From Burkholderiaceae bacterium (lineage in GTDB: Bacteria; Pseudomonadota; Gammaproteobacteria; Burkholderiales; Burkholderiaceae_C): a stretch of DNA of 24,393 bases. This document shows, piece after piece, positions 2,771 through 21,161 of this stretch. The stretch spans positions 1 to 24,393 of the forward strand of contig JBEBHW010000001.1 in assembly GCA_040081145.1 (NCBI GenBank), in the 5' to 3' direction. Under the pieces are notes generated by a model. The model made no database searches. It had not been told where the DNA came from and worked only from the letters and a program-made list of their open reading frames with translations. The translations under genes and the position numbers were made by a program. Position 1 is the first letter of the stretch. Each line of letters opens with the position of its first letter.

Positions 2771-4081
2771 TCATGTCCGCACCGCGGGCTTGGACATGCG
2801 GTCCGCGAGCCCGGCCCAGCAGTCGCTGTAGGCGGGGTCGAGGGCGCCGCAGGTGATCGCGTAGTCGGTGGGCACGAAGCGCCAGCGGCTTTCGAACATG
2901 AAGGCGAGCGTGTTGTCGAGCTTGTGCGGCGCCAAGGTCATCGTGCTGGCTTTGTCGAAGGCTGCGGCGTCCGGCCCATGCGGCACCATGCAGTTGTGCA
3001 GGCTCGCGCCGCCGGGCTTGAAGCCATCGGGCTTGGCGTCGTACTGGCCGTACACGAGGCCCATGAATTCGCTCATCAGGTTGCGGTGATACCAGGCCGG
3101 GCGGAACGTGTCTTCGGCGACCATCCAGCGCGGCGGGAAGATCACGAAGTCGCAGTTCGCCGTGCCTGGCGTGTCCGAAGGCGATGTGAGCACGGTGAAG
3201 ATCGAGGGATCGGGGTGGTCGAAACTGATCGAGCCGATTGTCATGAAGTTCGCCGTGTCGTACTTGCACGGCGTGAGGTTGCCGTGCCAGGCGACCACGT
3301 TGAAGGGGCTCGCGGCTTGCGTATTGCGCCAGAGGCGCCCACCGAATTTCTTGACGACGTGCGTCTCGCCTTGCGCGTCTTCAAATGCCGCCACGGGGCT
3401 CAGGAAGTCGCGCGGGTTGGCCAGGCCGTTGGCGCCGATCGGCCCGAGTTCGGGCAAGCGAAACGGCGCGCCGTAGTTCTCGGCGACATAACCGCGCGAC
3501 GGGCCGTCGGGAAGCTCGACACGAAACGCCAAGCCGCGCGGCAGCAACAGCACCTCGCCGGGTTTCGCGTGCAAGACCCCGAGTTCGGTGCGAACGATCA
3601 ACCGCCCCTGTTGCGGGACGAGCAGCATTTCGGCGTCGGCGTTCACGAGCGCGCGCCGCGTCATCGAGACATTCGCCACGTAGATGAGTGCGGCCAGGCC
3701 CGATTGCGCTTCGACATCGCCGTTGGCGACGAGGGTGCGCAGCCCGTCGACGAAGTCGAGATCTTCAGCGGGAATCGGAAACGCATTCCAGCGCATTGGG
3801 TCGGGTGCGACCGCTCGGCCGCCCGCCGCGCCACTCGTCCACCAGGGCTGCGAATACGCTTCATAGCGCCCCGTCACGACAGAGGGCTGGCGCCGGTACA
3901 TCCAGGTGCGCCGGTTCTCGGCGCGCGGCGCGGTGAACGCGGTTCCCGAAATTTGCTCGGCGTAGAGCCCGAGCGGCGCGCGCTGCGGGCTGTTGCGCCC
4001 CTGCGGCAACGCGCCCGCGACCGCCTCGCTGGCGAATTCATTGCCAAAGCCGGAAAGGTATTGCAGGTCGGTGCTGCTCAC
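2771..4081 (-). CDS. hmgA: Homogentisate 1,2-dioxygenase
   Basis: [13 protein letters not shown]...[12 protein letters not shown]-terminus, [14 protein letters not shown], Fe ligands in [11 protein letters not shown] (His, Glu) and [10 protein letters not shown] (His); 436 aa. Confidence 0.97.
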
Positions 4082-4134
4082 AGTAGTGCTCGAGTGAAGG
4101 GTGTCAGGCGGCCGTGGCGTTGGCGCCGATTGTC

Positions 4135-4356
4135 CTATGCCGGGACACCCGCCTCAGCCTTGCCGAGCGTACTCGCCCGCGCGGCGCCCAAGGCCTCGCG
4201 CAGCACGTCGAAGTCGCCGACGTGATTGGCCAGCAGCAGCACGAGTTTGGCATTCAGCTCGTGACTCTGCGAAGTCGCCAGGTCGCGGTGCGCGTCGATC
4301 AAGGCTTCGTAAAAATCATCGGGGGCGGCAAGGTTGGTGGCAGTGACGAGGGGCAC
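4135..4356 (-). CDS. DUF2783-type small protein
   Basis: 73 aa, [17 protein letters not shown]...[22 protein letters not shown] pattern recognised as DUF2783. AAGGAG SD upstream of GTG 4356. Confidence 0.85.
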
Positions 4357-4380
4357 GACGAACTCCTTGATTCAGGTCAA

Positions 4381-6102
4381 TCAGGTCAGCAGGTCCGGCA
4401 GCGCCAGCGCGCGCCGCAGCGCTGCGCGCAGGGCGTGCGGGTCGGTGCGGCGCCAGCGTGCGCAGACGTGCTGATCGGGGCGCAGCAGGATCAGCGTGCC
4501 GTCGCGGCCATCGTAGCGCTGCGTCAGCAGCCCTTGCACGTCAACGAGGCTGCGTGCACCCTCGACTTGCGCAGGCGAAGAACCCGGGCGCACGACCACC
4601 AGCACCTGCAGTGGCGCGAGTCCGTGAGCTGCCTGCTGCAAGTCCTGAACGCGTGCCGCGACATTCGTGCCGCCGAACAGCAGCGCCTTGAATCTTGCGC
4701 CGTGCAGCTCGCGCAACAACCACCCCGGTGCCGCGCCTTCGGCCTGAACCGGCGCGTCGGCGGCCGGCGCGCCCGGCTGCATCGCGCCGCTGAAGGTGTC
4801 GGTGTCGGGCGTGTTGAGCGGCGATTCGCGCAATGTGGCCGGCACCGACAAGCGCCCGCTGTTCACGAGCGAGCGTGCGAAGCGGTGCGTCTTCGCCAGG
4901 TCGAGGGTTGCGTCACGGAAGAGGCGGCTGACCTCGCTCTTGGGCGTGATGAAGTCGGTGGCGCGCGTCGAGTTCGCAATGTTCTCGTCGGCGGCGTAGT
5001 CGCGCTCCGCGGCGTAGCTGTCGAGCAGCAGATCGCCGGCGCGCCCTTGCAAGACTGCGGCGAGTTTCCACGCCAGGTTCTCGGCGTCTTGCACGCCCGA
5101 GTTCGCGCCGCGCGCGCCGAAGGGCGAGACGCCGTGCGCCGCGTCGCCGGCGAAGATCACCCGGCCATGGCGGAATCGCTCGAGCCGCTGGCAGGCGAAG
5201 GTGTAGACGCTCGCCCAGCCGATCTCGAATTCAACGTGAGGCGCGCCGATGCTGTCGAGCAAGGCGCGTATCCGCGGCCGGATGCGCTCGGGCTGACGCT
5301 CGGCTTGCGGGTCCGCATGCCAGCCGAGCTGGAAGTCGGTGCGCCACAGGCCGTCGGCCTGCTTGTGCAGGAGCACGCTTTGGCCCGGATGGAACGTCGG
5401 GTCGAACCAGAAGCGCCGCTCGGCAGGGAAATCGGGCGCGTCCATTCTGATGTCGGCAATCAGGAAGCGGTCGCGAAAGGTTCTCCCTGTCGCTTCGAGC
5501 CCCAGCAAGCCGCGCAGCGCCGACTTCGAGCCGTCGCACGCCGCCACGTACTCGGCCTCCAACACGTAAGGCCCATCCGGCGTCTCGACCGTCAGGCGCA
5601 CATGGTCGGCGCGAACCTCGACGCCGTTGACCGCGCTCTTCCAGCGCATCTCGAGGTTCGGCAACGCTGCGGCGCGGTCGGCCAGATACCCCTCAACGTA
5701 ATACTGCTGCAAGTTGATGAACGCCGGCCGCTCGTGGCCGGGTTCGGGCAACAAGTTGAAGGTGTAGAGCTGCGCCTCGCGAAAGTAGACCCGGCCCACA
5801 TTCCACGACACACCCTTGGCCACCATCGGATCGGCGCAGCCCAGGCGATCGAAGATTTCCAGCGTGCGTTTGGCAAAGCAGATCGCGCGCGAGCCGCTCG
5901 AGAGGCGATCGTCGTCATCGAGCAGCAGCACGGATACGCCTTGCTGCGCCAGATCGATCGCCAGCGCCAGCCCTACCGGTCCGGCGCCGACGATCACCAC
6001 CGGGTAGCGCAGCGGCGCCGGCGCGGCGTGGTCGGGCGCTTTGCGATAGGGGAACTGCAACGCCTCGTAGTCGCGCGACTCAGGCAGCGTTCTGCCGCTC
6101 AT
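4381..6102 (-). CDS. FAD-dependent aromatic monooxygenase (MhpA/PheA-like, group A)
   Basis: GAGPVG Rossmann motif, ACDGSKS (DG motif), FAGDAAH (GD motif), PFGARGANSG, C-terminal LLRPDQHV thioredoxin-like domain; 573 aa. Confidence 0.92.
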   Translation of the reverse strand: MSGRTLPESRDYEALQFPYRKAPDHAAPAPLRYPVVIVGAGPVGLALAIDLAQQGVSVLLLDDDDRLSSGSRAICFAKRTLEIFDRLGCADPMVAKGVSWNVGRVYFREAQLYTFNLLPEPGHERPAFINLQQYYVEGYLADRAAALPNLEMRWKSAVNGVEVRADHVRLTVETPDGPYVLEAEYVAACDGSKSALRGLLGLEATGRTFRDRFLIADIRMDAPDFPAERRFWFDPTFHPGQSVLLHKQADGLWRTDFQLGWHADPQAERQPERIRPRIRALLDSIGAPHVEFEIGWASVYTFACQRLERFRHGRVIFAGDAAHGVSPFGARGANSGVQDAENLAWKLAAVLQGRAGDLLLDSYAAERDYAADENIANSTRATDFITPKSEVSRLFRDATLDLAKTHRFARSLVNSGRLSVPATLRESPLNTPDTDTFSGAMQPGAPAADAPVQAEGAAPGWLLRELHGARFKALLFGGTNVAARVQDLQQAAHGLAPLQVLVVVRPGSSPAQVEGARSLVDVQGLLTQRYDGRDGTLILLRPDQHVCARWRRTDPHALRAALRRALALPDLLT

Positions 6103-6141
6103 CGGGCGCGCCTCGGGCCGCGCATCAAAGGCGGCCGCACG

Positions 6142-7095
6142 TCATTTTTCCAACGCAGCCCACATCTCGATGTCGCGCTGCGCGGTCCAGATGCGCGGGT
6201 CCGCGTACTTCGTCGCTTCGTCATAACAGCGTGTCACGTCGAACGGCATGCAGTGGTTGAAGATCACCCAGTGGCCATACTTGGGCTGCAGCTTGGCGAA
6301 AGTCTGCTTGTAGACCGCGTTCAAGTCCTTGCCTGCGGCCACCCCGGCTTTGACGCTGCGCCACACGTCAGCGATGAAGCCGCGCGTGCTTTTCAAACCT
6401 TGCGCCACCGCAGCAGGCGTCGTGAGCGCCGCGCCACGGCCCGGCACGAGGGCGCGGGGCGCAAGCGCGGCAAGCTTGTCGAGCGTCTTCGGCCAGTCTT
6501 GAAAATAGGCGTCTCCGGCGTACGGCGTCGCGTCGAACTCGACCAGATCGCCGGAGAACAGAATCTTCTGCTCGGGCAGCCACGCCACCGTATCCCCCTT
6601 GGTGTGGCCACGGCCGAGCTGAAGCAGCTGCACCTCCAACTTGCCGAGCCACAGGCTCATGCTGCCGACAAACGTCAGCGTCGGCCACGTCATTCCCGGC
6701 GGCACCGATTCGACGGCTTGAAAGAGGCGCGGAAAGCGCCCGATCTCGCTCGCCTTGTCGGCCTCGCCACGCTCGACGATCAGGTCATACGTGTCGCGGC
6801 TCGCGATGATGTGCTGCGGCTGATACGCGGTGGCACCGAGTACACGCACCGCGTGGTAGTGGCTCAGCACGACGTATTTGATGGGCAGATCGGTCACCGT
6901 GCGTATATGGCGGATCACGTCTTGCGCCATCACCGGCGTGGCTTGCGTGTCGATCACCATCACCGCGTCGTCGCCAATGATGACGCCGGTGTTCGGGTCG
7001 CCTTCGGCGGTGTAGGCGTAGGCGTTTTCGCTCAGGCGCGTGAACGTGACCTTTTTTTCTTCGAGGTCGGCTTGGGAGGCGAAGGTCTTGCTCAA
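6142..7095 (-). CDS. Metallo-beta-lactamase-fold protein with non-canonical metal motif
   Basis: DPNTGVIIGDDAVMVIDT, SHYHAVR, GHTKGD, FSGDL, LVPGRG. Start set at TTG 7095 because GGAG lies 5 nt upstream; the track ORF starts at 7122. Confidence 0.88.
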   Translation of the reverse strand: MSKTFASQADLEEKKVTFTRLSENAYAYTAEGDPNTGVIIGDDAVMVIDTQATPVMAQDVIRHIRTVTDLPIKYVVLSHYHAVRVLGATAYQPQHIIASRDTYDLIVERGEADKASEIGRFPRLFQAVESVPPGMTWPTLTFVGSMSLWLGKLEVQLLQLGRGHTKGDTVAWLPEQKILFSGDLVEFDATPYAGDAYFQDWPKTLDKLAALAPRALVPGRGAALTTPAAVAQGLKSTRGFIADVWRSVKAGVAAGKDLNAVYKQTFAKLQPKYGHWVIFNHCMPFDVTRCYDEATKYADPRIWTAQRDIEMWAALEK

Positions 7096-7289
7096 GGCAG
7101 CTCCAAAAAAGTCAGATGGCAAGCCAAGTATCGCGCCTGCCCGATCGCCACGGCACTCGCGAGCTCGGCGGCGCCGGCGGCCGCGGCATTCGATGGCGCC
7201 ACCAATGCGTAACAGCGTGGCGGTTTTGGGCGGCGCATGCCGTATCTGTCAGCGAGGCCTCTGCAACTCGGCAAACCAAGGACCGACCC

Positions 7290-7839
7290 ATGCGCGCACG
7301 TCACCCCACAGCTTTCGCTCCTGTCGCGCTTGCATTCGGCGCAGTTGCAGCAACGGCGACCTGGCCACGCCCGTCGCGGCGCGGCGCAGTCGCCGCGATG
7401 CGCAGCTCGGGCTGGGCCTGGACCGTCGTGCTCGCCGGCATGCTGCCCGGTTGCGGGGGCGGCGGCGGGGGTGGCGCAGCGCCGCCGGCCGTCGCGGCCA
7501 GCTACAGCGTCGGCGGCAACGTCGGCGGACTGACGGGCACGGTCGTGCTGCAGAACAACGGCGGCGACGCGCTGTCCCTGTCGACGAATTCCGGGTTCGT
7601 CTTCAGCGCCGCGGTACCCGACGGCGGCAGCTACGCGCTTGCGGTCCTGACCCAACCCGCCGGGCAGACCTGCTCTGTGAGCAACGGCTCGGGCACAGTG
7701 AACGGCGGCAACGTGATCAACGTGTCGGTCACCTGCACGACGGAGAGCACCGCCGTGCGATTCGAGCGGCAACGGCATGCTGGTATGGGTTGAGTTCGAA
7801 GGCACGAGCGCCTTCGTCTGGGCGCGGCGCTTCCAGTGA
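7290..7839 (+). pseudogene. Lipoprotein with an Ig-like 'YSVGG..V.GL.G..VLQNNG' domain; appears internally deleted and frameshifted
   Basis: AAGGA SD then ATG 7290 (alternative ATG 7398). Lipobox-like MLPGC followed by a poly-Gly linker, then one complete domain ending NVSVTC; frame stops at 7793. A different frame at 7759-7839 reads DSSGNGMLVWVEFEGTSAFVWARRFQ*, which resembles a terminal repeat of such proteins. Confidence 0.65.
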
Positions 7840-12355: not shown

Positions 12356-12808
12356 TTAAATGTAGCGGCGTGCCACCGACTCGGCGACGCAAACCGGCTT
12401 CGTGGAGCCCTCACGTTCCATCGTCACTTGTGTCGTCAATTGCGCACCACCTTCGAGCACCTCATAACTGAGCAGCTTGAACACGCCGCGCAAGCGGCTG
12501 CCCACGGGAACCGGCGCCGGAAAGCGCACCCGGTTCAAGCCGTAGTTCACACCCATGCGTGTGTCCTGGATCTCGAAGGCCGACGCACCCATCAGCGGCA
12601 GAAGCGACAAAGTGAGAAACCCATGCGCCACCGTCGCGCCAAAGGGGCCGGCCGCGGCGCGCTGCGGATCGACGTGAATCCATTGATGGTCGCCCGTCGC
12701 GTGGGCAAATGCGTCGATCATCGGCTGCTCGACGCTGAACCAGTCGCTGTGACCCAGGTCCTCGCCGACCAGGCCTTGCAGGTCGCTCAGTTTCGCGTAA
12801 GTTTTCAT
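12356..12808 (-). CDS. MaoC family dehydratase / (R)-enoyl-CoA hydratase-like
   Basis: Hydratase-2 motif IDAFAHATGDHQWIHVD, TVAHGFLTLSL, NYGLNRVRF. ATGA overlap with the upstream ParA gene. Confidence 0.92.
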   Translation of the reverse strand: MKTYAKLSDLQGLVGEDLGHSDWFSVEQPMIDAFAHATGDHQWIHVDPQRAAAGPFGATVAHGFLTLSLLPLMGASAFEIQDTRMGVNYGLNRVRFPAPVPVGSRLRGVFKLLSYEVLEGGAQLTTQVTMEREGSTKPVCVAESVARRYI

Positions 12809-13470
12809 TGCCGGTCCTCACCGTTTTCCACGACGAACTCTTCGTCGAATACTTCGTCGTTGAGCCACGCCGTGATCGGCTTCCACTGCTCCAGGTCGCG
12901 CTCGAAGCGGCTCGACGCCATGTCCCACAGCGTCAGGCCGTGCGCGCCCAGGTGCACGTAGTTTTGCGAGTCGCGCAGGAAGGCAATGACCGGCAATTTC
13001 ACGGTGGCCAGGAAATTGCGCAGTTGCTCGGTCGAGATCAGGCCTTCGCGCGTGCGCATTCCCACGAGGGCAAATTCGATGGATGCCGCCCTGCGGTGCG
13101 TGCGCAAGGTCTCGATGAACTGGTGCGTCGCATGAATGTCGAAGATGCCGGGTTGCAGCGGAATCAACACCTTGTCGGCAATCTTCAGGACTTCATCCAG
13201 CCGCTTGCCCGACAGGCCCGCCGGCGTGTCGAGCACCACGTGGGTCGTGCCGCGCGGCGGGCGCACCAGGCTGTCTTGCGAGGCATCCCAACTCTGGATC
13301 GGCGGCAGCCCCGCCGGGCGCAGGCTGAGCCAGGTGCGCGACGACTGTTGCCGATCCACGTCGCCCAACATCACGGCGTGGCCGCGCGCGGCAAGATAAC
13401 CCGCAAGATTGGTCGCGAGCGTGGACTTGCCCACCCCGCCCTTTGGATTCGCGACCGCGATCACCGGCAT
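12805..13470 (-). CDS. ParA/MinD family ATPase, copy 1 (orphan)
   Basis: Deviant Walker A NPKGGVGKST, GDVDRQ, Walker B VVLDTPAG, IPLQPG. GGAGG SD upstream of ATG 13470; 221 aa. Confidence 0.93.
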   Translation of the reverse strand: MPVIAVANPKGGVGKSTLATNLAGYLAARGHAVMLGDVDRQQSSRTWLSLRPAGLPPIQSWDASQDSLVRPPRGTTHVVLDTPAGLSGKRLDEVLKIADKVLIPLQPGIFDIHATHQFIETLRTHRRAASIEFALVGMRTREGLISTEQLRNFLATVKLPVIAFLRDSQNYVHLGAHGLTLWDMASSRFERDLEQWKPITAWLNDEVFDEEFVVENGEDRQ

Positions 13471-13595
13471 GACGCCCTCCCGACTCGACGCTTCGATTCG
13501 GGTTATGTTACAGGTGACCGACGCCCCTGCGACATTGCGGAATACCAGTGAAAGTACGGTCTGAAACAACCTCGCGCCTCACCGAAAGACTTGCC

Positions 13596-14213
13596 ATGCC
13601 CGAATCGCCCGCCCCGACTGCGCTTGTGATTGCAGCGCACCCGCACCTCCAGCAATCGCGAGTCAATCGCGCCGCACTGCGCGCCGCTGCGCAGACGCCA
13701 GCGCGGGTGCACGACCTCTACGCGCTCTACCCCGACTACCTGATCGACATCGCCGCCGAACAGGCTGCGCTCGCGCAAGCGCAGCTTGTCGTCTGGCAGC
13801 ACCCGATCCACTGGTACAGCACGCCGCCGCTCATGAAGTTGTGGATCGACGAAGTGCTCGCCTTCGGCTGGGCCTATGGCCCGGGCGGCACCGCCTTGCG
13901 CGGCAAAGACTTGTGGCTGGTTGCGAGCACCGGCGGGCCCGAAGACTCGTACCGGCCCGACAGCTACAACCGCTATTTTTTCGACGCCTTCTTGCCGCCC
14001 TATGAGCAGACGGCGGCGCTGTGCGGCATGCGCTTCCTGCCGCCGCTGCTGCTGCACGGCGCGCACCGGGCGACGAATGCACAAAGCGAGGCGCACGCAC
14101 AGACGTATGCGCAGCGTTTGCGCAGCTACCCCGATTGGCCGGAGCTCGCCGATCTGGAGGCGTGCCCGGCGTGCGCCGTGCCGCTCACCGCCCGGCCCGC
14201 GCAGGAGGCGTGA
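13596..14213 (+). CDS. kefF: Glutathione-regulated K+ efflux ancillary flavoprotein (NAD(P)H quinone oxidoreductase)
   Basis: AHP...SRVN, HDLYALYPDY.ID..AEQ, VWQHPIHWYSTPPLMKLWIDEV...GWAYG. TGATG coupling to kefC. Confidence 0.9.
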   Translation: MPESPAPTALVIAAHPHLQQSRVNRAALRAAAQTPARVHDLYALYPDYLIDIAAEQAALAQAQLVVWQHPIHWYSTPPLMKLWIDEVLAFGWAYGPGGTALRGKDLWLVASTGGPEDSYRPDSYNRYFFDAFLPPYEQTAALCGMRFLPPLLLHGAHRATNAQSEAHAQTYAQRLRSYPDWPELADLEACPACAVPLTARPAQEA

Positions 14214-16042
14214 TGGAACACAGCTCCTGGCTCACCGGCAGCCTCATCTACCTCGGCGCAGCGGTCCTCGCGGTGCCGATCGCTCGCGCGCTCGGGCTGG
14301 GGTCGATCATCGGTTATCTCAGTGCGGGAATCGCCATCGGGCCTTGGGGCTTGAAGCTCGTCACGGAAGCCCAAGACATGCTGCACTTCGCCGAATTCGG
14401 CGTCGTGCTGATGCTGTTCCTGGTGGGCCTGGAGCTCGAACCGCGGCGCTTGTGGGCGCTGCGCAAACCGATCTTCGGCTGGGGCAGCGTGCAACTGTTC
14501 GGCTCAGGCCTGCTGCTCGCTGCGGTGGCGTGGTCGTTCGGCGTGGACATGAATTTGGCCATCGTCGCGGCGCTTGGCCTGGCGATGTCGTCCACCGCGA
14601 TCGGCCTGGGCGTGCTGGCGGACCGCAACCTCATGCCCACCACCTCGGGCCAGGCGGTGCTGAGCGTCGCGCTGCTGCAAGACGTTGCGGCAATCCCGAT
14701 CCTCGCCCTGGTGCCTTTGCTCGCCGCAAGCAGCGTGCACGCGAGCGGCGCCGGCTGGCTCGGCGCGGCCAAGGCGATCGGCGTGATCGCCGCCATCATT
14801 CTGGGCGGGCGCCTGCTGCTGCGCCCGGCCTTGCGCTGGATCGCACGCAGCAAGACGCCCGAAATCTTCACCGCTGCGGCACTGTTGCTGGTGGTGGCCA
14901 CCGCGGCGCTGATGCAGGCGGTGGGGTTGTCGATGGCGCTCGGCGCATTCCTCGCCGGTGTGCTGCTCGCCGAAAGCGAATACCGGCGCGAGCTGGAGAC
15001 CGACATCGAGCCGTTCAAGGGCTTGCTGCTCGGCTTGTTTTTCATCGCGGTGGGAATGAGCATCGACTTTGCCGTCGTCTGGCAAAGCCCGGCCCTGGTG
15101 GCTTCGGTAGTGCTGGGGTTTCTCCTGCTCAAATCGCTCATCTTGTGGGCGATGTGCCGCAGCATGCCGATTCCGCTGCCCGAGCGGCCAGTGTTCGTGA
15201 TCCTGCTCGCGCAGGGTGGAGAGTTCGGCTTCGTCGTGTTTCAAAGCGCCTCGGGCGCGGGGGTGATCGGCGCGCCGATGACGTCGTTGCTCGTCGCCGC
15301 AGTCGCAATCTCGATGCTGCTCACGCCCCTGCTGCTCGTGCTCGCCGACCGCTGGTGGGCAGCGCACCTGGGGGAACACAAGAAGACGCAACACGCTGAG
15401 CTGAGCGAACCGCAAAGCGCGCCGGTCATCATTGCCGGCCTCGGGCGCTACGGCCAGATTGTCGGCCGCCTGCTCTACGCGAACGGCATCCTGCCCACGG
15501 TGCTTGACCACGACGCCGAGCAGATCGAGGCGCTGCGCCGCTTCGGTTGGCTCGCACACTATGGCGATGCGTCGCGCCTGGACCTGCTGCGCGTGGCCGG
15601 TGCCGCGCAGGCGCGTGTGCTCGTCCTCGCGATCGACGATGTCGACCAGAGCGTCGCCGTCGCGCGCATGGTGCGCGATCACTTTCCGAACCTGCAAATC
15701 GTTGCTCGAGCGCGCAACGTGCAGCATTACTTTCGCCTGCGCGAACTGGGCGTGACGCTGATCGAGCGTGAAACGCTCGATTCAGCCTTGATGAGCGCGC
15801 GCTCGGCGCTCGAGCTGCTCGGCTGGCAGCCGCACCAAGCGCGCAACCTGGCGCTGCGCTTTCGGCGCCACAACGTCGAGCAATTGGAAGCGACACTGCC
15901 GCACTGGAAAGACCAGGCCAAGCTCATCGCTTCGGCAAAGCAGGGGCGCCAGCAGTTGGAAGAGCTGTTCGCGCAGGAGCGCGAGGCCGGACGCGAGCAG
16001 CGGGCGCGTGCCAGCTGGAGCGATGAAGCTCCCGCCGCCTGA
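14213..16042 (+). CDS. kefC: Glutathione-regulated potassium efflux system protein (CPA2 + KTN domain)
   Basis: HFAEFGVVLMLFLVGLEL, SEYRRELETDIEPFKGLLLGLFFI, QGGEFGFV, KTN motif IIAGLGRYGQIVGRLL, YGDA.R.D.L. Confidence 0.93.
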   Translation: MEHSSWLTGSLIYLGAAVLAVPIARALGLGSIIGYLSAGIAIGPWGLKLVTEAQDMLHFAEFGVVLMLFLVGLELEPRRLWALRKPIFGWGSVQLFGSGLLLAAVAWSFGVDMNLAIVAALGLAMSSTAIGLGVLADRNLMPTTSGQAVLSVALLQDVAAIPILALVPLLAASSVHASGAGWLGAAKAIGVIAAIILGGRLLLRPALRWIARSKTPEIFTAAALLLVVATAALMQAVGLSMALGAFLAGVLLAESEYRRELETDIEPFKGLLLGLFFIAVGMSIDFAVVWQSPALVASVVLGFLLLKSLILWAMCRSMPIPLPERPVFVILLAQGGEFGFVVFQSASGAGVIGAPMTSLLVAAVAISMLLTPLLLVLADRWWAAHLGEHKKTQHAELSEPQSAPVIIAGLGRYGQIVGRLLYANGILPTVLDHDAEQIEALRRFGWLAHYGDASRLDLLRVAGAAQARVLVLAIDDVDQSVAVARMVRDHFPNLQIVARARNVQHYFRLRELGVTLIERETLDSALMSARSALELLGWQPHQARNLALRFRRHNVEQLEATLPHWKDQAKLIASAKQGRQQLEELFAQEREAGREQRARASWSDEAPAA

Positions 16043-16144: not shown

Positions 16145-16801
16145 TCACGCCGCCTGTTGCAAGTCCAGGCTCTCGTCGAACACTTCGTCGTTGATCCACG
16201 CGGTGATCGGCGCCCACTGCGCCAGGTCGCGCTCGAAACGGCTTGACGCCATGTCCCACAGCGTCACGCCATGCGCACCGAGGTGCACGTAGTTTTGCGA
16301 TTCGCGCAACATCGCCAGCACCGGCAGCTGGACTTCGGCGAGGAACCTGCGCAACTGATCGGTGGAGATCGTGCCCTCGCGGGTGCGCACGCCGACCAGC
16401 GCGATTTCAATCGAGTTCGCGCGGCGGTGCGCGCGCAGCGTTTCAATGAAGCGGTACGTCGCGTGAATGTCGAACATGCCCGGTTGCAGCGGAATCAGCA
16501 GCTTGTCGGCAACCTTCAACACTTCATCGAGCCGCTTGCCGCCCAAGCCTGCCGGCGTGTCGAGCACGACGTGCGTCGTGCCGCGCGGCGGCCGCACCAG
16601 TTGGTCTTGCGAGACCTCCCAGCTGTGGATTTTCGGCAAGCCCGCAGGGCGCATGCCGAGCCAGGTGTGCGTGGACTCCTGGCGGTCCGCATCGCCCAAC
16701 ATCACGGTGTGGCCAGTCACCGCAAGATAGCCCGCAAGATTGGTCGCCAGCGTGGACTTGCCAACACCGCCCTTTGGATTCGCGACCACGATCACCGGCA
16801 T
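16145..16801 (-). CDS. ParA/MinD family ATPase, copy 2 (orphan)
   Basis: Same motifs as copy 1; manual alignment gives 37 differences over 210 residues (~82% identity). AAGGAG SD upstream of ATG 16801; 218 aa. Confidence 0.93.
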   Translation of the reverse strand: MPVIVVANPKGGVGKSTLATNLAGYLAVTGHTVMLGDADRQESTHTWLGMRPAGLPKIHSWEVSQDQLVRPPRGTTHVVLDTPAGLGGKRLDEVLKVADKLLIPLQPGMFDIHATYRFIETLRAHRRANSIEIALVGVRTREGTISTDQLRRFLAEVQLPVLAMLRESQNYVHLGAHGVTLWDMASSRFERDLAQWAPITAWINDEVFDESLDLQQAA

Positions 16802-17009
16802 AACTGTCTCCTTATGGGTTTTGATACAGTGATTGTTACATGTGGTCACGCATCTGAGGCGAAGCAAAACCCCCGTGAAAACACCACCTGCGCGCATCAC
16901 TCAATTCAGCTAAAAGCGCGTCCGACTTGGCGCTGGGCCCCCAGCCGGGGGAAGGCGATCACGATGCTTGGCACGCCACCACTTCACCACACAATGCAGC
17001 GGGTTCATC

Positions 17010-17549
17010 ATGAAGACAATCAGCCTGGTTCTTGCGTTGCTTGCCGCCCCGCCCACCCTCGCACCCGAGCTGGCGCACGCGCAGGCGCATGAGCACGGCG
17101 CAGCCCGGCTCGATGTCTCGGTGGAGGGCAAGACCGTGAGCCTGCAGTTCGAGGCGCCACTCGACGCGCTGTTCGGCTTCGAACGTGCCCCGCGCAGCGC
17201 CGCCGAGAAGGCGCTTGTCGATGCAGGAATCGCCAGACTGAAGGCGGCGGATCGCTTGTTCCAGTTCGACGCGGCAGCGGATTGCCGCCTCGCGAGCGTG
17301 GCGCTGACGTCGGCCGCGCTGAAGCTCGGCGCGGCGGCCCCTGCCGCAGCACTGAGCGCCGAACACGCCGACCTTGAAGCAACGTTTGAATTCGCATGCA
17401 GGAGCGCGACGCTTCCGGGAACGATGGACATTGCCCTGTTCGGCGCGTTCCCCAGATTGCAGCGCATCGACATCCAGGTCGCCACACCCCAGGGCCAGTT
17501 CAAGCGCAGCCTGAAGCGCCCGACAACGCGCATTTCCTTGCGGCGTTGA
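17010..17549 (+). CDS. DUF2796 / ZrgA-like periplasmic metal-binding protein
   Basis: Signal peptide, AHEHG, LFGFERAP, Cys, HADLEATFEFAC. First gene of a DUF2796-ABC-ABC-DUF3299 cluster. Confidence 0.85.
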   Translation: MKTISLVLALLAAPPTLAPELAHAQAHEHGAARLDVSVEGKTVSLQFEAPLDALFGFERAPRSAAEKALVDAGIARLKAADRLFQFDAAADCRLASVALTSAALKLGAAAPAAALSAEHADLEATFEFACRSATLPGTMDIALFGAFPRLQRIDIQVATPQGQFKRSLKRPTTRISLRR

Positions 17550-17568
17550 CGCTCCGCAGGCGACTCCC

Positions 17569-18270
17569 GTGATCCGTATCGAACAGCTGCGCTTCGCCTG
17601 GCCGAACGATCAAGCGGACTGCCTGGCGCTTGACCACCTGGAAGTTCCCGCCGGCAAAACGCTGTTCCTGCACGGCCCCAGCGGCTCGGGCAAGAGCACG
17701 CTGCTCGGGCTGCTCGCGGGGGTGCTGCTGCCGCGCCAGGGCACGGTGGAGTTGCTCGGGGTGAACTGGGCGACGCTGGCGTCGAGTCGGCGTGATGCAC
17801 GCCGCGCCGACCACGTGGGCTACATCTTCCAGCAGTTCAACCTGCTGCCCTACCTCAGCGCGCTGGACAACGTGCTGCTGCCGTGCCGCTTTTCGGAAGC
17901 GCGGCGCAGGCGCGCAGCGGCGCAATCGGGCACGGCTGGCATGAGCGCGCTGTCGCTGCTCGAGCGCGTGGGCCTGCCGCGCAGCACCTGGGTCAAGCCT
18001 GCGTCGCAGTTGTCGGTGGGCCAGCAGCAGCGTGTCGCCGCGGCGCGCGCGTTGATCGGCGCGCCGGAAGTCGTGATCGCCGACGAGCCCACGTCGGCGC
18101 TGGACACCGAACTGCGCGACTCGTTCATGGCGCTGCTGCTCGCGCAATGCCGCGCCGCCGGGAGTTCGCTCGTGTTCGTCAGCCACGACCGGCAACTCGC
18201 GGCGCAGTTCGACATGACCGTCTCGCTCGCCGACCTGAACCAGGCCGTGCCGCAGGAGAGTGCGGCGTGA
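17569..18270 (+). CDS. ABC transporter ATP-binding protein (LolD/MacB-like; ZrgB-like)
   Basis: Walker A GPSGSGKST, YIFQQFNLLPYL, signature LSVGQQQRV, Walker B IADEPT, H-loop VSHD. Confidence 0.95.
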   Translation: MIRIEQLRFAWPNDQADCLALDHLEVPAGKTLFLHGPSGSGKSTLLGLLAGVLLPRQGTVELLGVNWATLASSRRDARRADHVGYIFQQFNLLPYLSALDNVLLPCRFSEARRRRAAAQSGTAGMSALSLLERVGLPRSTWVKPASQLSVGQQQRVAAARALIGAPEVVIADEPTSALDTELRDSFMALLLAQCRAAGSSLVFVSHDRQLAAQFDMTVSLADLNQAVPQESAA

Positions 18271-19556
18271 GCGCCTTGCTGCACCTGGCCGCACACAGTG
18301 CGTGGAACCGGCGCACGACGCTGGCGCTCGTCGTGCTCTCGATGGCGCTGTCCACGTTGCTGCTGCTCAGCCTGGAGCGCATGCGCAGCGACGTGCGCAG
18401 CAGCTTCTCGCAATCCGTGAGCGGCACGGACCTGGTGATGGGCGCACGAACCGGCTCGGTGCAACTGATGCTCTACGCGGTGTTTCGCATCGGCGCGGCG
18501 ACGAACAACATCCGCATCGACAGCGTGCGCAAAATCGCCTCGCACCGCGCAGTCGACTGGGTCGTGCCGATTTCTCTCGGCGATTCGCACCGCGGCATGC
18601 CGGTGCTCGGCACAAGCAGCGAGTACTTCGCGCGCTTTCGTTATGGGGATCGCGCACCGCTTGCGCTCGCTCAAGGCCGCGCATTTGCCGGCACACTCGA
18701 AGGCGTGTATGAAGCGGTGATCGGCGCCGAAGTCGCCGCGCAACTCGGCTACGGGCTGGGCACGCAGCTGATCCTGAGCCACGGCGCGGGCAGCGCCACG
18801 GCCGGCCCGGGCTTGAACCCGGACCACGCCGACAAGCCGTTTCACGTGGTCGGCGTGCTCGCACGCACCGGAACGCCGGTGGATCGGACCGTGCACGTCA
18901 GCCTGGAGGCGATCGAGGCGCTGCACCTCGAGTGGGGCGGCGGCGCGCCGATCCCGGGCCTGAAGATTCCCGCCGAGCAGGCACGCAAGTTCGACCTCGA
19001 ACCCAAACAAGTCACCGCTGCACTCATCGGCCTGAAAACCCGCGCCGCAGTCTTTGCCGTGCAGCGCCACATCGCCGACTTCAAGGAAGAACCCTTGATG
19101 GCGGTGCTGCCCGGCGTCGCGCTCGACGAACTGTGGGACGTGGTCGGCGTGGGCGAAAAAGCCTTGCTCGGCATGTCGCTGCTCGTCGCCGTCGTGAGCC
19201 TGGCCGGCCTGATTGCCGTCGTTCTTGCGGGCCTGAACGAGCGGCGCCGCGAACTCGCAGTGCTGAGGGCTGTGGGCGCAGGGCCGCGCCACGTCGCCGC
19301 GCTGCTTGCGGTAGAGGGCAGCCTCATCACCTTGATCGGCGTGGGCCTCGGGCTTCTGCTGACAATCGTTTTCATCGTGGCCGCCGGACCTTGGGTACAG
19401 TCGCGCTTCGGCATCACGCTGCACCTTGTTGCCCCGACACTGTCGCAATGGACGTTGCTCGCGGCGATCGTCGCCTCCGGGTTGCTCGCCAGCCTCGTGC
19501 CGGGATGGCGTGCGTATCGCCTGTCGCTGGCCGACGGCCTGTCACCGAAAGTCTGA
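18267..19556 (+). CDS. ABC transporter permease, FtsX/MacB type (ZrgC-like)
   Basis: SFSQSVSGTDLVMGARTGSVQLMLYAVF, PISLGDSHRG, LNERRRELAVLRAVGA. GTGA overlap with the ATPase gene, CAGGAG SD. Confidence 0.92.
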   Translation: MSALLHLAAHSAWNRRTTLALVVLSMALSTLLLLSLERMRSDVRSSFSQSVSGTDLVMGARTGSVQLMLYAVFRIGAATNNIRIDSVRKIASHRAVDWVVPISLGDSHRGMPVLGTSSEYFARFRYGDRAPLALAQGRAFAGTLEGVYEAVIGAEVAAQLGYGLGTQLILSHGAGSATAGPGLNPDHADKPFHVVGVLARTGTPVDRTVHVSLEAIEALHLEWGGGAPIPGLKIPAEQARKFDLEPKQVTAALIGLKTRAAVFAVQRHIADFKEEPLMAVLPGVALDELWDVVGVGEKALLGMSLLVAVVSLAGLIAVVLAGLNERRRELAVLRAVGAGPRHVAALLAVEGSLITLIGVGLGLLLTIVFIVAAGPWVQSRFGITLHLVAPTLSQWTLLAAIVASGLLASLVPGWRAYRLSLADGLSPKV

Positions 19557-19557
19557 A

Positions 19558-20151
19558 ATGACCCGCTTGTTGCTGATCGGAACAATCCTCGCCGCAGCCG
19601 CGGCGGTGGCCCTTGCGCAGAACAATTCTGCAGCGCCCGCCAAGACCGGCAACACCGCAGCCAAACCATCGAGCAGCGCGGCCAAGCCGACGTACCGCGA
19701 AATCAAGTGGGACGACCTCGTCCCCGCCGACTGGGACCCGTTCAAGGAGATGAAAGACATGAATCTCGCGGGGCTCTCCGACGCCGATCCGCGCGCCGCG
19801 GCAGCGCTCAAACGCATGCGCGAGTACTGGGACAACGCGCCGGTGAACCCCAAACTCGAAGATCAAGCGGTGCGCATTCCGGGCTACGTCGTGCCGCTGG
19901 ACGACAGCACCACGGGGCTCAAAGAGTTCCTTCTCGTGCCGTACTTCGGCGCCTGCATCCACACGCCGCCGCCGCCAGCGAACCAGATCGTGCACGTCGT
20001 GCCGCGCGTGGCAGCGAAAGGCTTTCGTTCCATGGACACGGTGTGGGTGAGCGGGACGCTGAAGGCGGCGAAGTCGGACACGGCGATGGGCGCGAGCGGC
20101 TACCGGCTCGATGCTGTGGTTGTCGAGCCTTACGTCGACAAGCCGAAGTAG
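19558..20151 (+). CDS. DUF3299 domain protein (ZrgD-like)
   Basis: EIKWDDLVP, VRIPGYVVPL, EFLLVPYFGACIHTPPPPANQIVHV. Signal peptide; starts 1 nt after the permease stop. Confidence 0.92.
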   Translation: MTRLLLIGTILAAAAAVALAQNNSAAPAKTGNTAAKPSSSAAKPTYREIKWDDLVPADWDPFKEMKDMNLAGLSDADPRAAAALKRMREYWDNAPVNPKLEDQAVRIPGYVVPLDDSTTGLKEFLLVPYFGACIHTPPPPANQIVHVVPRVAAKGFRSMDTVWVSGTLKAAKSDTAMGASGYRLDAVVVEPYVDKPK

Positions 20152-20174
20152 CGCGCCGTCAGGGTGGCGCCGCG

Positions 20175-21161
20175 TCACTCGATCAGTTCATCCGCGCGCA
20201 GCAAAACCGATTGGGGAATCTTCAAGCCGAGTTGCCGGGCGGTCTTCAAGTTGATGACAAGCTCGAACTTCGTCGGCTGCTCCACCGGCAAATCGGCGGG
20301 CTTGGCGCCCTTGAGAATCTTGTCGGCGTGCGCCGCCACATGGCGCCACATGTCTGACAGGCTGGCGCCGTAGTACATCAAGCCGCCGGCATCAACGAAG
20401 GCGCGCTCGGGATAGATCGCGGGCAGGCGGCGGCTCGCGGCAAGCTCGACGATCGCTTGGCGATGCGTCAGAAAGACGATGCCCGACAACACCGACAACG
20501 CTTGCGCACGTTCGCCTGTCGCGGCGGCAAAGGCCTGCTCGAACTGGCTCGGACCACTCGCCTCCACCACCTGAACCTTCAGTGCTAAGGCTCGCCCGAC
20601 CTCCTCTCGTTCTTTTGCGAACGCCGCGGCGTACGAGTCGCCCGGATTGGTGAGCACGGCCAAGCGCGTCATTCCGGAGACGCTTTCCTTGAGAAGTTGC
20701 ACGCGCTTCGCGTTCAATCCTTGCGCCAGCGTGGTCACGCCCGTGACGTTGCTCCCCGGGCGCGCCAGGCTCTGGACGAGACCATCCGCCACCGGATCAC
20801 CGGTCGTCACCGTCACCACGGGTATAGTGCGCGTCGCGTTCTTCACGGCCAAGGCGCCGGGCGACGACCCCACAACGATCAAGTCAACGCGGCGCTGCAC
20901 GAGCTCTGCCGCGAGCGAGGGCAGGCGATCCAGCTTGCCTTGCGCAAAGAGCGACTCCATCGTGTAGTTCTTCCCCTCGACCCAGCCGAGGTCTCGCATG
21001 CCACGTCGAAACGCCTCGTTCGACAGCGCAGCGGCTTCCTCCGACAGTGGCGACACGCGCCCGATCCTGAAGATCTTCGCGGTGTCCTGGGCCTGGGCAG
21101 CCGGTGGCAGCGCGGCAAGGACGGCCGCGGCCAAGCCGACCGCGATACCGGCGAAGTTCAT
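20175..21161 (-). CDS. ABC-type substrate-binding protein (ABC_sub_bind family), orphan
   Basis: Signal peptide ending AQAQ, AFRRGMRDLGWVEGKN, TIPVV..TGDPV..GLV.SLARPG.NVTG, ADLPVEQPTKFELVINLKTA..LG. Start ATG 21161 or GTG 21194. Confidence 0.92.
   Translation of the reverse strand: MNFAGIAVGLAAAVLAALPPAAQAQDTAKIFRIGRVSPLSEEAAALSNEAFRRGMRDLGWVEGKNYTMESLFAQGKLDRLPSLAAELVQRRVDLIVVGSSPGALAVKNATRTIPVVTVTTGDPVADGLVQSLARPGSNVTGVTTLAQGLNAKRVQLLKESVSGMTRLAVLTNPGDSYAAAFAKEREEVGRALALKVQVVEASGPSQFEQAFAAATGERAQALSVLSGIVFLTHRQAIVELAASRRLPAIYPERAFVDAGGLMYYGASLSDMWRHVAAHADKILKGAKPADLPVEQPTKFELVINLKTARQLGLKIPQSVLLRADELIE

Follow-up and report, generated by a model that had tools for sequence, protein, structure and literature searches.

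A metallo-beta-lactamase-fold protein co-inherited with a flavoprotein hydroxylase and a DUF2783 protein: a candidate three-protein route into homogentisate

The breakdown of tyrosine and of arylacetates converges on homogentisate, from which pyomelanin is also formed. In a Burkholderiaceae bacterium (GenBank assembly GCA_040081145.1), the gene for the enzyme that opens its ring, hmgA, lies directly behind three closely packed genes for a metallo-beta-lactamase (MBL)-fold protein, a flavin adenine dinucleotide (FAD)-dependent hydroxylase and a small protein of the DUF2783 family, which raises the question of what these three proteins contribute to the supply of homogentisate. The DNA analysed, hereafter the window, comprises 24,393 nucleotides (nt), positions 1 to 24,393 of the forward strand of contig JBEBHW010000001.1. 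A preliminary description of it had proposed that the three proteins act together as 4-hydroxyphenylacetate (4-HPA) 1-hydroxylase (EC 1.14.13.18). The analysis reported here points to the trio as a dedicated three-protein route into homogentisate, a reading to which we give a probability of about 0.6.

The four genes lie on the minus strand, as described before. The first (7095-6142) encodes an atypical, cytoplasmic MBL-fold protein of 317 amino acids (aa; PF00753, E 3e-11). It is followed by the gene for a class A FAD-dependent aromatic hydroxylase of 573 aa (6102-4381; FAD_binding_3, E 2.7e-65), similar to MhaA and HpaH, by that for the small helical DUF2783 protein of 73 aa (4356-4135; PF10932, E 5.6e-28), its putative MhaB-like partner, and by hmgA (4081-2771), encoding a homogentisate 1,2-dioxygenase of 436 aa. 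HmgA scored 648.6 bits with the equivalog model TIGR01015 against a cut-off of 510.75, the match covering residues 5-427, and carries both the HgmA_N (E 1e-112) and the HgmA_C (E 2e-76) domains. The gaps between the genes measure 39, 24 and 53 nt, within the 24-53 nt given earlier.

Translation of the MBL gene was assigned to the TTG at 7095, with a GGAG at 7101-7104, and a longer open reading frame reaching 7122 is not needed; the DUF2783 gene starts with GTG and has its own Shine-Dalgarno sequence, AGGAG, 6 nt upstream. As a lipoprotein gene diverges from about 7291 on the plus strand, the MBL gene heads the operon, and the region between both (7096-7290) presumably holds the operon promoter; a scan of this region for a consensus sigma-70 promoter gave no match. 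A scan of the window for terminator-like sites revealed none in the three gaps. The single site within 2771-7095 (3543-3527) falls inside hmgA, and the total number of sites was lower than in shuffled controls. The GC content of the window is about 66%.

The lack of a 4-hydroxyphenylpyruvate dioxygenase gene (hppD), to which attention had been drawn earlier, holds for the window but not for the organism. When the genome's own HppD and MaiA were used in tblastn searches, neither hppD nor maiA was found in the window, whereas hppD is present on contig C41 (385.8 bits). The maiA gene lies on contig C149 and a short-type fumarylacetoacetase-like gene on contig C775, in an assembly that is fragmented into 854 contigs and 91.7% complete.

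Beyond their identity and tight spacing, the three upstream genes are coupled in a near-perfect manner across the phylogeny of the Pseudomonadota. Their distribution was followed in a sample of 401 genomes of the order, in a sample of 386 genomes of the phylum, in other orders of the class and in named genomes. In the order sample, DUF2783 and the MBL-fold protein were present together in 77 genomes, DUF2783 without the MBL-fold protein in none, and the MBL-fold protein without DUF2783 in 8; these tallies include genome G294 (1 of the 77 and 1 of the 85 genomes with the MBL-fold protein), on which no conclusion depends. The orthologs of the MBL-fold protein in the 77 genomes were 49-83% identical, with fragments only in two genomes. 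Of the eight genomes with the MBL-fold protein alone, one has an assembly of 67% completeness, and in three an MBL-hydroxylase pair runs into a contig end. The phylum sample contained 44 genomes with both proteins, none with DUF2783 only and 2 with the MBL-fold protein only, and in 37 of those with both, the MBL gene was no more than 3.5 kb away from DUF2783. Outside the order but within the class, the MBL-fold protein was encoded in 11 of 13 DUF2783 genomes, one of the exceptions being 58% complete. A lack of co-occurrence had been set beforehand as a result that would refute the proposal, and this was clearly not the outcome, as the MBL-fold protein accompanies DUF2783 in every DUF2783 genome of the order and phylum samples (77/77 and 44/44).

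The three genes also tend to stay side by side. The MBL gene was located directly upstream in 42 of 60 order-sample loci with a hydroxylase at least 50% identical to that of the window, and in all 17 loci that lacked it nearby, with room for it on the contig, the genome carries an MBL ortholog elsewhere. Named genomes were scanned with an alignment of the MBL-fold protein, and both partners were found within 7 kb of the MBL gene in 57 of the best 80 loci. These loci belong to Aquabacterium, Roseateles, Variovorax, Acidovorax and others, with no Delftia, Paraburkholderia xenovorans or Pseudomonas putida locus among them, and the closest named relatives place the window in the Burkholderiales near Aquabacterium, Roseateles and Rubrivivax. 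Downstream of the trio, hmgA was present within 1.5 kb in 23 of these 57 named loci and within 3 kb in 18 of the 60 order-sample loci, and a divergent HgmA-like gene followed the trio in another 12 of the 60. The commonest order was MBL-hydroxylase-DUF2783, but hydroxylase-DUF2783-MBL was found at loci L157 and L177 and in the genomes of family f332, and hydroxylase-MBL-DUF2783 at L230. That the trio holds together through these differing orders is a good argument for a functional link between its members, and its recurrence in dozens of families puts the arrangement far outside what chance would produce.

Two variations on the downstream part of the pathway were observed among these loci. At L022 (9134-11495) and 11 more order-sample loci, and also at L206, L209, L210, L215, L217 and L219, the canonical hmgA is replaced by a gene for a divergent protein with only the HgmA_N domain, 23-29% identical to HmgA; in the one of these loci that was annotated, L022, the next gene is fumarylacetoacetase-like (FAA_hydro_N_2 plus FAA_hydrolase). 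At L209 (5853-6920) and L210 (5765-6865), from metagenome-assembled genomes of Burkholderiales/Gammaproteobacteria, hppD is directly upstream of MBL-hydroxylase-DUF2783, so that both routes to homogentisate are encoded there side by side.

That similar clusters might already be partly characterised had been anticipated in the preliminary description, and two systems in print bear this out: MhaAB of P. putida U and HpaH/HpaC of Delftia acidovorans. MhaAB consists of a flavoprotein of 566 aa and a "coupling protein" of 60 aa, which convert 3-hydroxyphenylacetate (3-HPA) into homogentisate by hydroxylation at C6 (PMC3053370, PMC10983741). In P. xenovorans LB400, the products of Bxe_A2727 (560 aa) and Bxe_A2726 (60 aa), encoded next to hmgA1, have been named MhaAB orthologs (PMC3053370, PMC10983741) and are 47% and 35% identical to MhaA and MhaB, respectively (PMC3053370). 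The locus of the window resembles this system in that a large FAD flavoprotein (566 aa there, 573 here) is followed by a very small protein (60 vs 73 aa), which in MhaAB is essential for hydroxylation, in that the product of MhaAB, homogentisate, feeds HmgA, whose gene lies here 53 nt downstream of DUF2783, and in that Cupriavidus and Paraburkholderia loci have DUF2783 at the position of MhaB. It differs in that no MBL-fold protein is described for the P. putida system, and in that the window contains no dedicated permease gene, whereas in Cupriavidus necator and Paraburkholderia kururiensis DUF2783 is followed by an MFS gene. The P. putida system also has a permease, MhaC.

The hydroxylase matched NF006002/PRK08132 with 835.7 bits against a cut-off of 416, whereas its best match in the PDB, PnpA, reached only E 2e-42. 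By a strict rule, 74 of the 81 DUF2783 loci of the order sample have an MhaA-like gene immediately in front of DUF2783, and the other seven were mostly contig ends, broken genes or cases where DUF2783 was too divergent for tblastn, one locus (L061) having a cytochrome P450 gene. The gene order in C. necator and P. kururiensis is IclR, IclR, MBL, hydroxylase, DUF2783 and MFS transporter. In a tree of the hydroxylases, the protein of the window falls in a clade of 30 rows, each with an adjacent MBL gene, and a long-branch clade of 17 rows, 36-40% identical, retains DUF2783 and never has an adjacent MBL gene. Because of the 74/81 adjacency, the gene order in Cupriavidus and Paraburkholderia and the absence of any rival name in the databases, DUF2783 is very probably the MhaB family. 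The databases gave no name beyond 'DUF2783 domain-containing protein' and 'MBL fold metallo-hydrolase' for these families, the literature searched contained only a passing mention of DUF2783 in a single paper, and the Pfam domain matched 6,700 cluster representatives. The function that the preliminary description had hoped to add to DUF2783 is therefore one whose likely nature is already in the literature, as an MhaB-type role, but is lacking in annotation.

The three chains were also examined in a fold test. With DUF2783 as the partner, the score was 0.33 compared to 0.00 for the best control. Of 80 solved complexes, 58 reach the mark of this test, as do 2 of 110 mismatched pairs; those that reach it at 0.60 or under comprise only 7 of the solved complexes and both of the passing mismatches. 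In the predicted interface, residues 32-44 of DUF2783 lie on residues 394-412 of the hydroxylase. Replacement of the hydroxylase, with the MBL-fold protein retained, brought the score to 0.00 and abolished the predicted contact. The complex prediction suggested earlier thus lends weak support to docking of DUF2783 on the hydroxylase, and it gave no sign of contact between DUF2783 and the MBL-fold protein, which is not evidence against binding.

One locus departs from the usual composition. At L061 (7327-9862, contig C47 of genome G099), the MBL and DUF2783 genes are followed by a cytochrome P450 gene (PF00067, E 1e-33), and no flavoprotein is encoded on the 13-kb contig. The sole MhaA-like gene of this genome, a partial match with 46% identity, is on a contig other than that of the pair. 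A different class of hydroxylase may have replaced the flavoprotein there.

The MBL-fold protein is as atypical as had been noted. Its version of the canonical HxHxDH motif reads H-Y-H-A-V-R, invariantly so in 12 orthologs of 49-85% identity, in which H79, H81, H164, D183, R84, E186, D195, H281 and C282 are also invariant. The histidine triad H79/H81/H164 and D183 are kept, and the Asp-His of the motif is replaced by V83-R84. Because Asp-His is always Val-Arg, the sequence suggests one metal site rather than two, and the conserved arginine could bind a carboxylate. No signal peptide was found in the protein, and it scored far below all cut-offs with the NCBIfam models for beta-lactamases and SoxH.

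A structure of an ortholog exists as PDB entry 8D2Z, which matches the MBL-fold protein over its full length (phmmer E 2e-131), superposes with a template modelling (TM) score of 0.92-0.95 and has the same HYHAVR motif. The entry was released in 2023 as 'Metallo-beta-lactamase superfamily protein from Burkholderia cenocepacia', with no assigned function, and a literature search found no paper on it. The paa-adjacent BCAL0211 of B. cenocepacia was considered as this protein and rejected, since its product belongs to DUF1835. Among characterised proteins, those closest in structure over the full length are chlorothalonil dehalogenase (Chd, PDB 6UXU; TM 0.72) and the subunits of 2,4-dinitroanisole O-demethylase (DnhAB), which match over the whole length, including the C-terminal helical part, with TM scores of about 0.7. 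Both act directly on substituted aromatic rings, but they are only 17-23% identical to the MBL-fold protein, and both are hydrolytic substitution enzymes.

Where the MBL gene is not linked to the hydroxylase, it was seen in several settings. It lies directly before hmgA at a distance of about 10 nt at L108-L110 and of 33-379 nt at L111, L112 and L203; in at least nine genomes it closes a paaA..paaC..paaE-TetR operon (L114-L116, L118-L122 and L125; 58-64% identical); and in family f14 (L134-L137) it is found beside a LysR gene and a gene for an indolepyruvate-ferredoxin-oxidoreductase-like protein of 1179 aa. As the unlinked gene sits by hmgA, by the paa operon and by the LysR and indolepyruvate-oxidoreductase-like genes, these contexts speak for a free-standing enzyme of arylacetate/homogentisate metabolism rather than an obligate subunit. 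Of the original proposal of three proteins acting together, the part that is supported is that the genes behave as a single evolutionary unit (77/77 and 44/44). A physical subunit role of the MBL-fold protein, which is often unlinked and gave no sign of contact with DUF2783 in the fold test, stays putative, and so does 4-HPA, rather than 3- or 2-HPA, as the substrate.

The second system in print is the one to which the name 4-HPA 1-hydroxylase belongs. The enzyme of D. acidovorans was cloned in patent US8124846B2 as HpaH plus HpaC: the flavoprotein HpaH gives an unidentified metabolite Z, and HpaC, also called 1,4-dihydroxyphenylacetate mutase, converts Z into homogentisate, the classical activity requiring FAD and Mg2+ (PMC9338888, PMC8058095). 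The same papers report that hpaH plus hpaC gave no homogentisate in plants, a further gene being suspected, and that Ruegeria and Halomonas orthologs of both genes gave none in Escherichia coli (PMC9338888, PMC8058095). This system is similar to the trio in coming from the same bacterial order, in combining a flavoprotein hydroxylase with a second protein and in needing a divalent metal, where the trio includes a metal-binding fold. It differs in that two components are described there and three are conserved here, so that HpaC has two candidate counterparts, the MBL-fold protein and DUF2783. The flavoprotein and small-protein pair is, as judged by architecture, of a known kind, matching both MhaAB and HpaH/HpaC, whereas the strictly co-inherited MBL-fold protein is a variant not described in the literature reached, in a locus otherwise typical of a widespread module.

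In class A flavoprotein hydroxylases, the incoming oxygen is placed ortho or para to a hydroxyl group that activates the ring. In the mechanism that we propose, the 573-aa flavoprotein would, at the expense of NAD(P)H and O2, introduce a second hydroxyl into a hydroxyphenylacetate, at the position para to the phenolic one, and the DUF2783 protein, as an MhaB-type partner, would bind the flavoprotein and be needed for productive (coupled) hydroxylation. The MBL-fold protein would be a separate, soluble and probably mono-metal enzyme, most likely acting on the product of hydroxylation, and HmgA would then open the homogentisate ring. Para-hydroxylation of 3-HPA (at C6) or of 2-hydroxyphenylacetate (2-HPA, at C5) would yield homogentisate directly, whereas with 4-HPA it would amount to an ipso attack at C1 giving an ipso-quinol (metabolite Z, quinolacetate), from which homogentisate could form only by a 1,2-shift of the acetate side chain. 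The likeliest task of the MBL-fold protein would be this shift, assisted by its metal and with the conserved R84 holding the carboxylate. Such a role would explain why the MBL gene is hardly ever lost, why it can be a neighbour of hmgA, why the old enzyme needed Mg2+ and why the two-gene constructs failed. The substrate (4-, 3- or 2-HPA), the chemistry of the MBL-fold protein and every chemical step are what we infer here. That the substrate in this organism is 4-HPA and that the MBL-fold protein performs the rearrangement is a tentative proposal, with the odds somewhat against it. Its broader form, in which this protein, with one metal, an invariant Arg84 and 1,2-shift chemistry, is the missing third component of the long-orphan 4-HPA 1-hydroxylase, is rather unlikely as judged at present.

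Several points weigh against a dedicated three-protein route, and some of them belong to an alternative in which the locus encodes an ordinary 3-HPA 6-hydroxylase of the MhaAB kind, the flavoprotein and DUF2783 sufficing for homogentisate and the MBL-fold protein being a co-regulated accessory without a role in hydroxylation. MhaAB of P. putida U is described as an enzyme that is complete with its two components and specific for 3-HPA (PMC3053370, PMC10983741), forming homogentisate from it and not accepting 4-HPA (PMC10983741), so that the MBL-fold protein would not be needed for 3-HPA chemistry; the MhaA ortholog of LB400 was induced, in the control strain, much more by 3-HPA than by 4-HPA, which favours 3-HPA (PMC10983741). 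The MBL gene is also unlinked in about 30% of orthologous loci, and the fold test, which gave no sign of its contact with DUF2783, fits an accessory. However, a dispensable accessory is not expected in 77/77 and 44/44 DUF2783 genomes, nor through three gene orders, and in the 17-row long-branch clade the loss of linkage accompanies divergence of the hydroxylase, so that this alternative is judged unlikely, though it deserves to be kept in view. Genome G689 (95% complete) adds to the points against the three-protein route: at L228, on its contig C2, DUF2783 and a 44%-identical hydroxylase lie by maiA and hppD, and an MBL ortholog was found nowhere in the genome, which makes it the single clear exception to the trio among well-assembled genomes. 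Moreover, as related genomes are not independent, the 77/77 and 44/44 counts overstate the number of independent events and are to be read as a pattern, not a statistic. Homology to MhaA/MhaB and HpaH/HpaC rests on architecture, context and published statements on the Burkholderiales orthologs, and the proposed chemistry of the MBL subfamily on sequence and context. If HpaC is the small protein, and converts Z into homogentisate, the MBL-fold protein needs another job.

MBL-fold thioesterases and lactonases are established enzyme classes, and such a job could be that of an arylacetate hydrolase, either a thioesterase for dead-end hydroxyphenylacetyl-CoA or a lactonase for 2-coumaranone/homogentisate lactone, feeding free hydroxyphenylacetate to the hydroxylase, such as 2-HPA that escapes from the phenylacetyl-CoA epoxide pathway. 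The paa operons that end in the MBL gene and the LysR and indolepyruvate-oxidoreductase-like neighbours in family f14 fit a general arylacetate role of this sort as well as they fit a rearrangement, which also counts against the three-protein route, and a fungal MBL-type thioesterase appears among the weak structural matches. We nevertheless consider a hydrolase improbable, as the second-metal-site Asp-His of typical di-metal MBL hydrolases is an invariant Val-Arg, the closest characterised full-length neighbours act on rings and are not thioesterases or lactonases, and the linkage of the MBL gene is tightest to the hydroxylase and hmgA, not to paa genes. A hydroxylase that acts on another phenolic acid, such as 3-hydroxyphenylpropionate in the manner of MhpA, with hmgA nearby by accident, is very improbable: Bxe_A2727 of LB400 was formerly annotated as MhpA (PMC3053370) and the NCBIfam MhpA models match the hydroxylase partially (171-254 bits), but all of them fall far below their cut-offs whereas NF006002 is well above its own, and accident would not account for hmgA in 23/57 named and 18/60 order-sample loci, nor for the HgmA-like gene in 12 further loci, with a fumarylacetoacetase-like gene next to it in the one annotated. 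Hardly any weight is left for the reading of the MBL-fold protein as a beta-lactamase, or as a periplasmic hydrolase of the SoxH type, with no connection to the pathway. Its sequence does match B1/B2 beta-lactamases and SoxH-related proteins weakly in NCBIfam and the PDB, but the scores are 79.8 bits against a cut-off of 200 for B1 and 108 against 280 for the SoxH-related model, Val takes the place of D120 and Asp that of Cys221, and the gene is conserved in its linkage to aromatic catabolism. Membership in beta-lactamase subclass B1 or B2 was accordingly rejected, in view of the H-Y-H-A-V-R motif, the Asp at position 221, the lack of a signal peptide and the scores (79.8/200 and 59.3/240 bits).

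Behind hmgA, after a gap of 37 nt, the minus strand continues with a HpaG-N-like gene (2023-2733; TIGR02305, 255 bits vs a cut-off of 228.65), a HpaG-C-like gene (1259-2026; TIGR02303, 335.9 vs 276.4 bits) and a HpaE-like aldehyde dehydrogenase gene cut by the contig end (2-1240; TIGR02299, 635.6 vs 638.35 bits). The odds are slightly in favour of the window holding the start of a hydroxyphenylacetate catabolic operon, which would run from MBL, hydroxylase, DUF2783 and hmgA into these hpaG/hpaE-like genes. HpaG and HpaE belong to the homoprotocatechuate meta-cleavage route, so that the arrangement, rare among related loci, looks like two hydroxyphenylacetate pathways fused in one operon. A search for a complete homoprotocatechuate pathway that would account for the hpaG/hpaE-like genes revealed neither type of HpaD and no HpaB in the 92%-complete assembly. 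HpaBC, the 4-HPA 3-hydroxylase of E. coli W, likewise initiates the breakdown of hydroxyphenylacetate, and at one time it too was seen as a hydroxylase with a 'coupling protein', but it has an unrelated fold (an acyl-CoA-dehydrogenase-like oxygenase and a flavin reductase), and its product is homoprotocatechuate.

On the other side of the operon, the divergent lipoprotein gene (7291-7793, plus strand) encodes a small protein with an L-P-G-C lipobox and a glycine-rich linker, without a Pfam match. Further along the window are two minus-strand genes for ParA/MinD-like ATPases of near-identical domain layout (12805-13569 and 16145-16900), with a plus-strand gene for a Na+/H+ exchanger with a TrkA-N domain between them (14021-16042). 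Long open frames of up to 557 aa occur on both strands at 16900-20200, and the five minus-strand frames scanned there gave no Pfam match.

Biochemical knowledge of the 4-HPA bypass (EC 1.14.13.18) dates back to 1975, and the bypass has been pursued for herbicide-tolerant crops and for the cheap production of homogentisate. The trio supplies a candidate for the gene suspected to be missing from the reconstitution with hpaH and hpaC and, because the three genes are almost always co-inherited, a concrete three-gene construct. If the MBL-fold protein were an ordinary accessory hydrolase, the locus would be a routine operon of the MhaAB type. If the proposed role is true, it would provide working annotations for DUF2783 and for the function-less structure 8D2Z, and it would place a non-hydrolytic reaction in the MBL fold, with isomerase (NIH-shift) chemistry new to the metallo-beta-lactamase superfamily.

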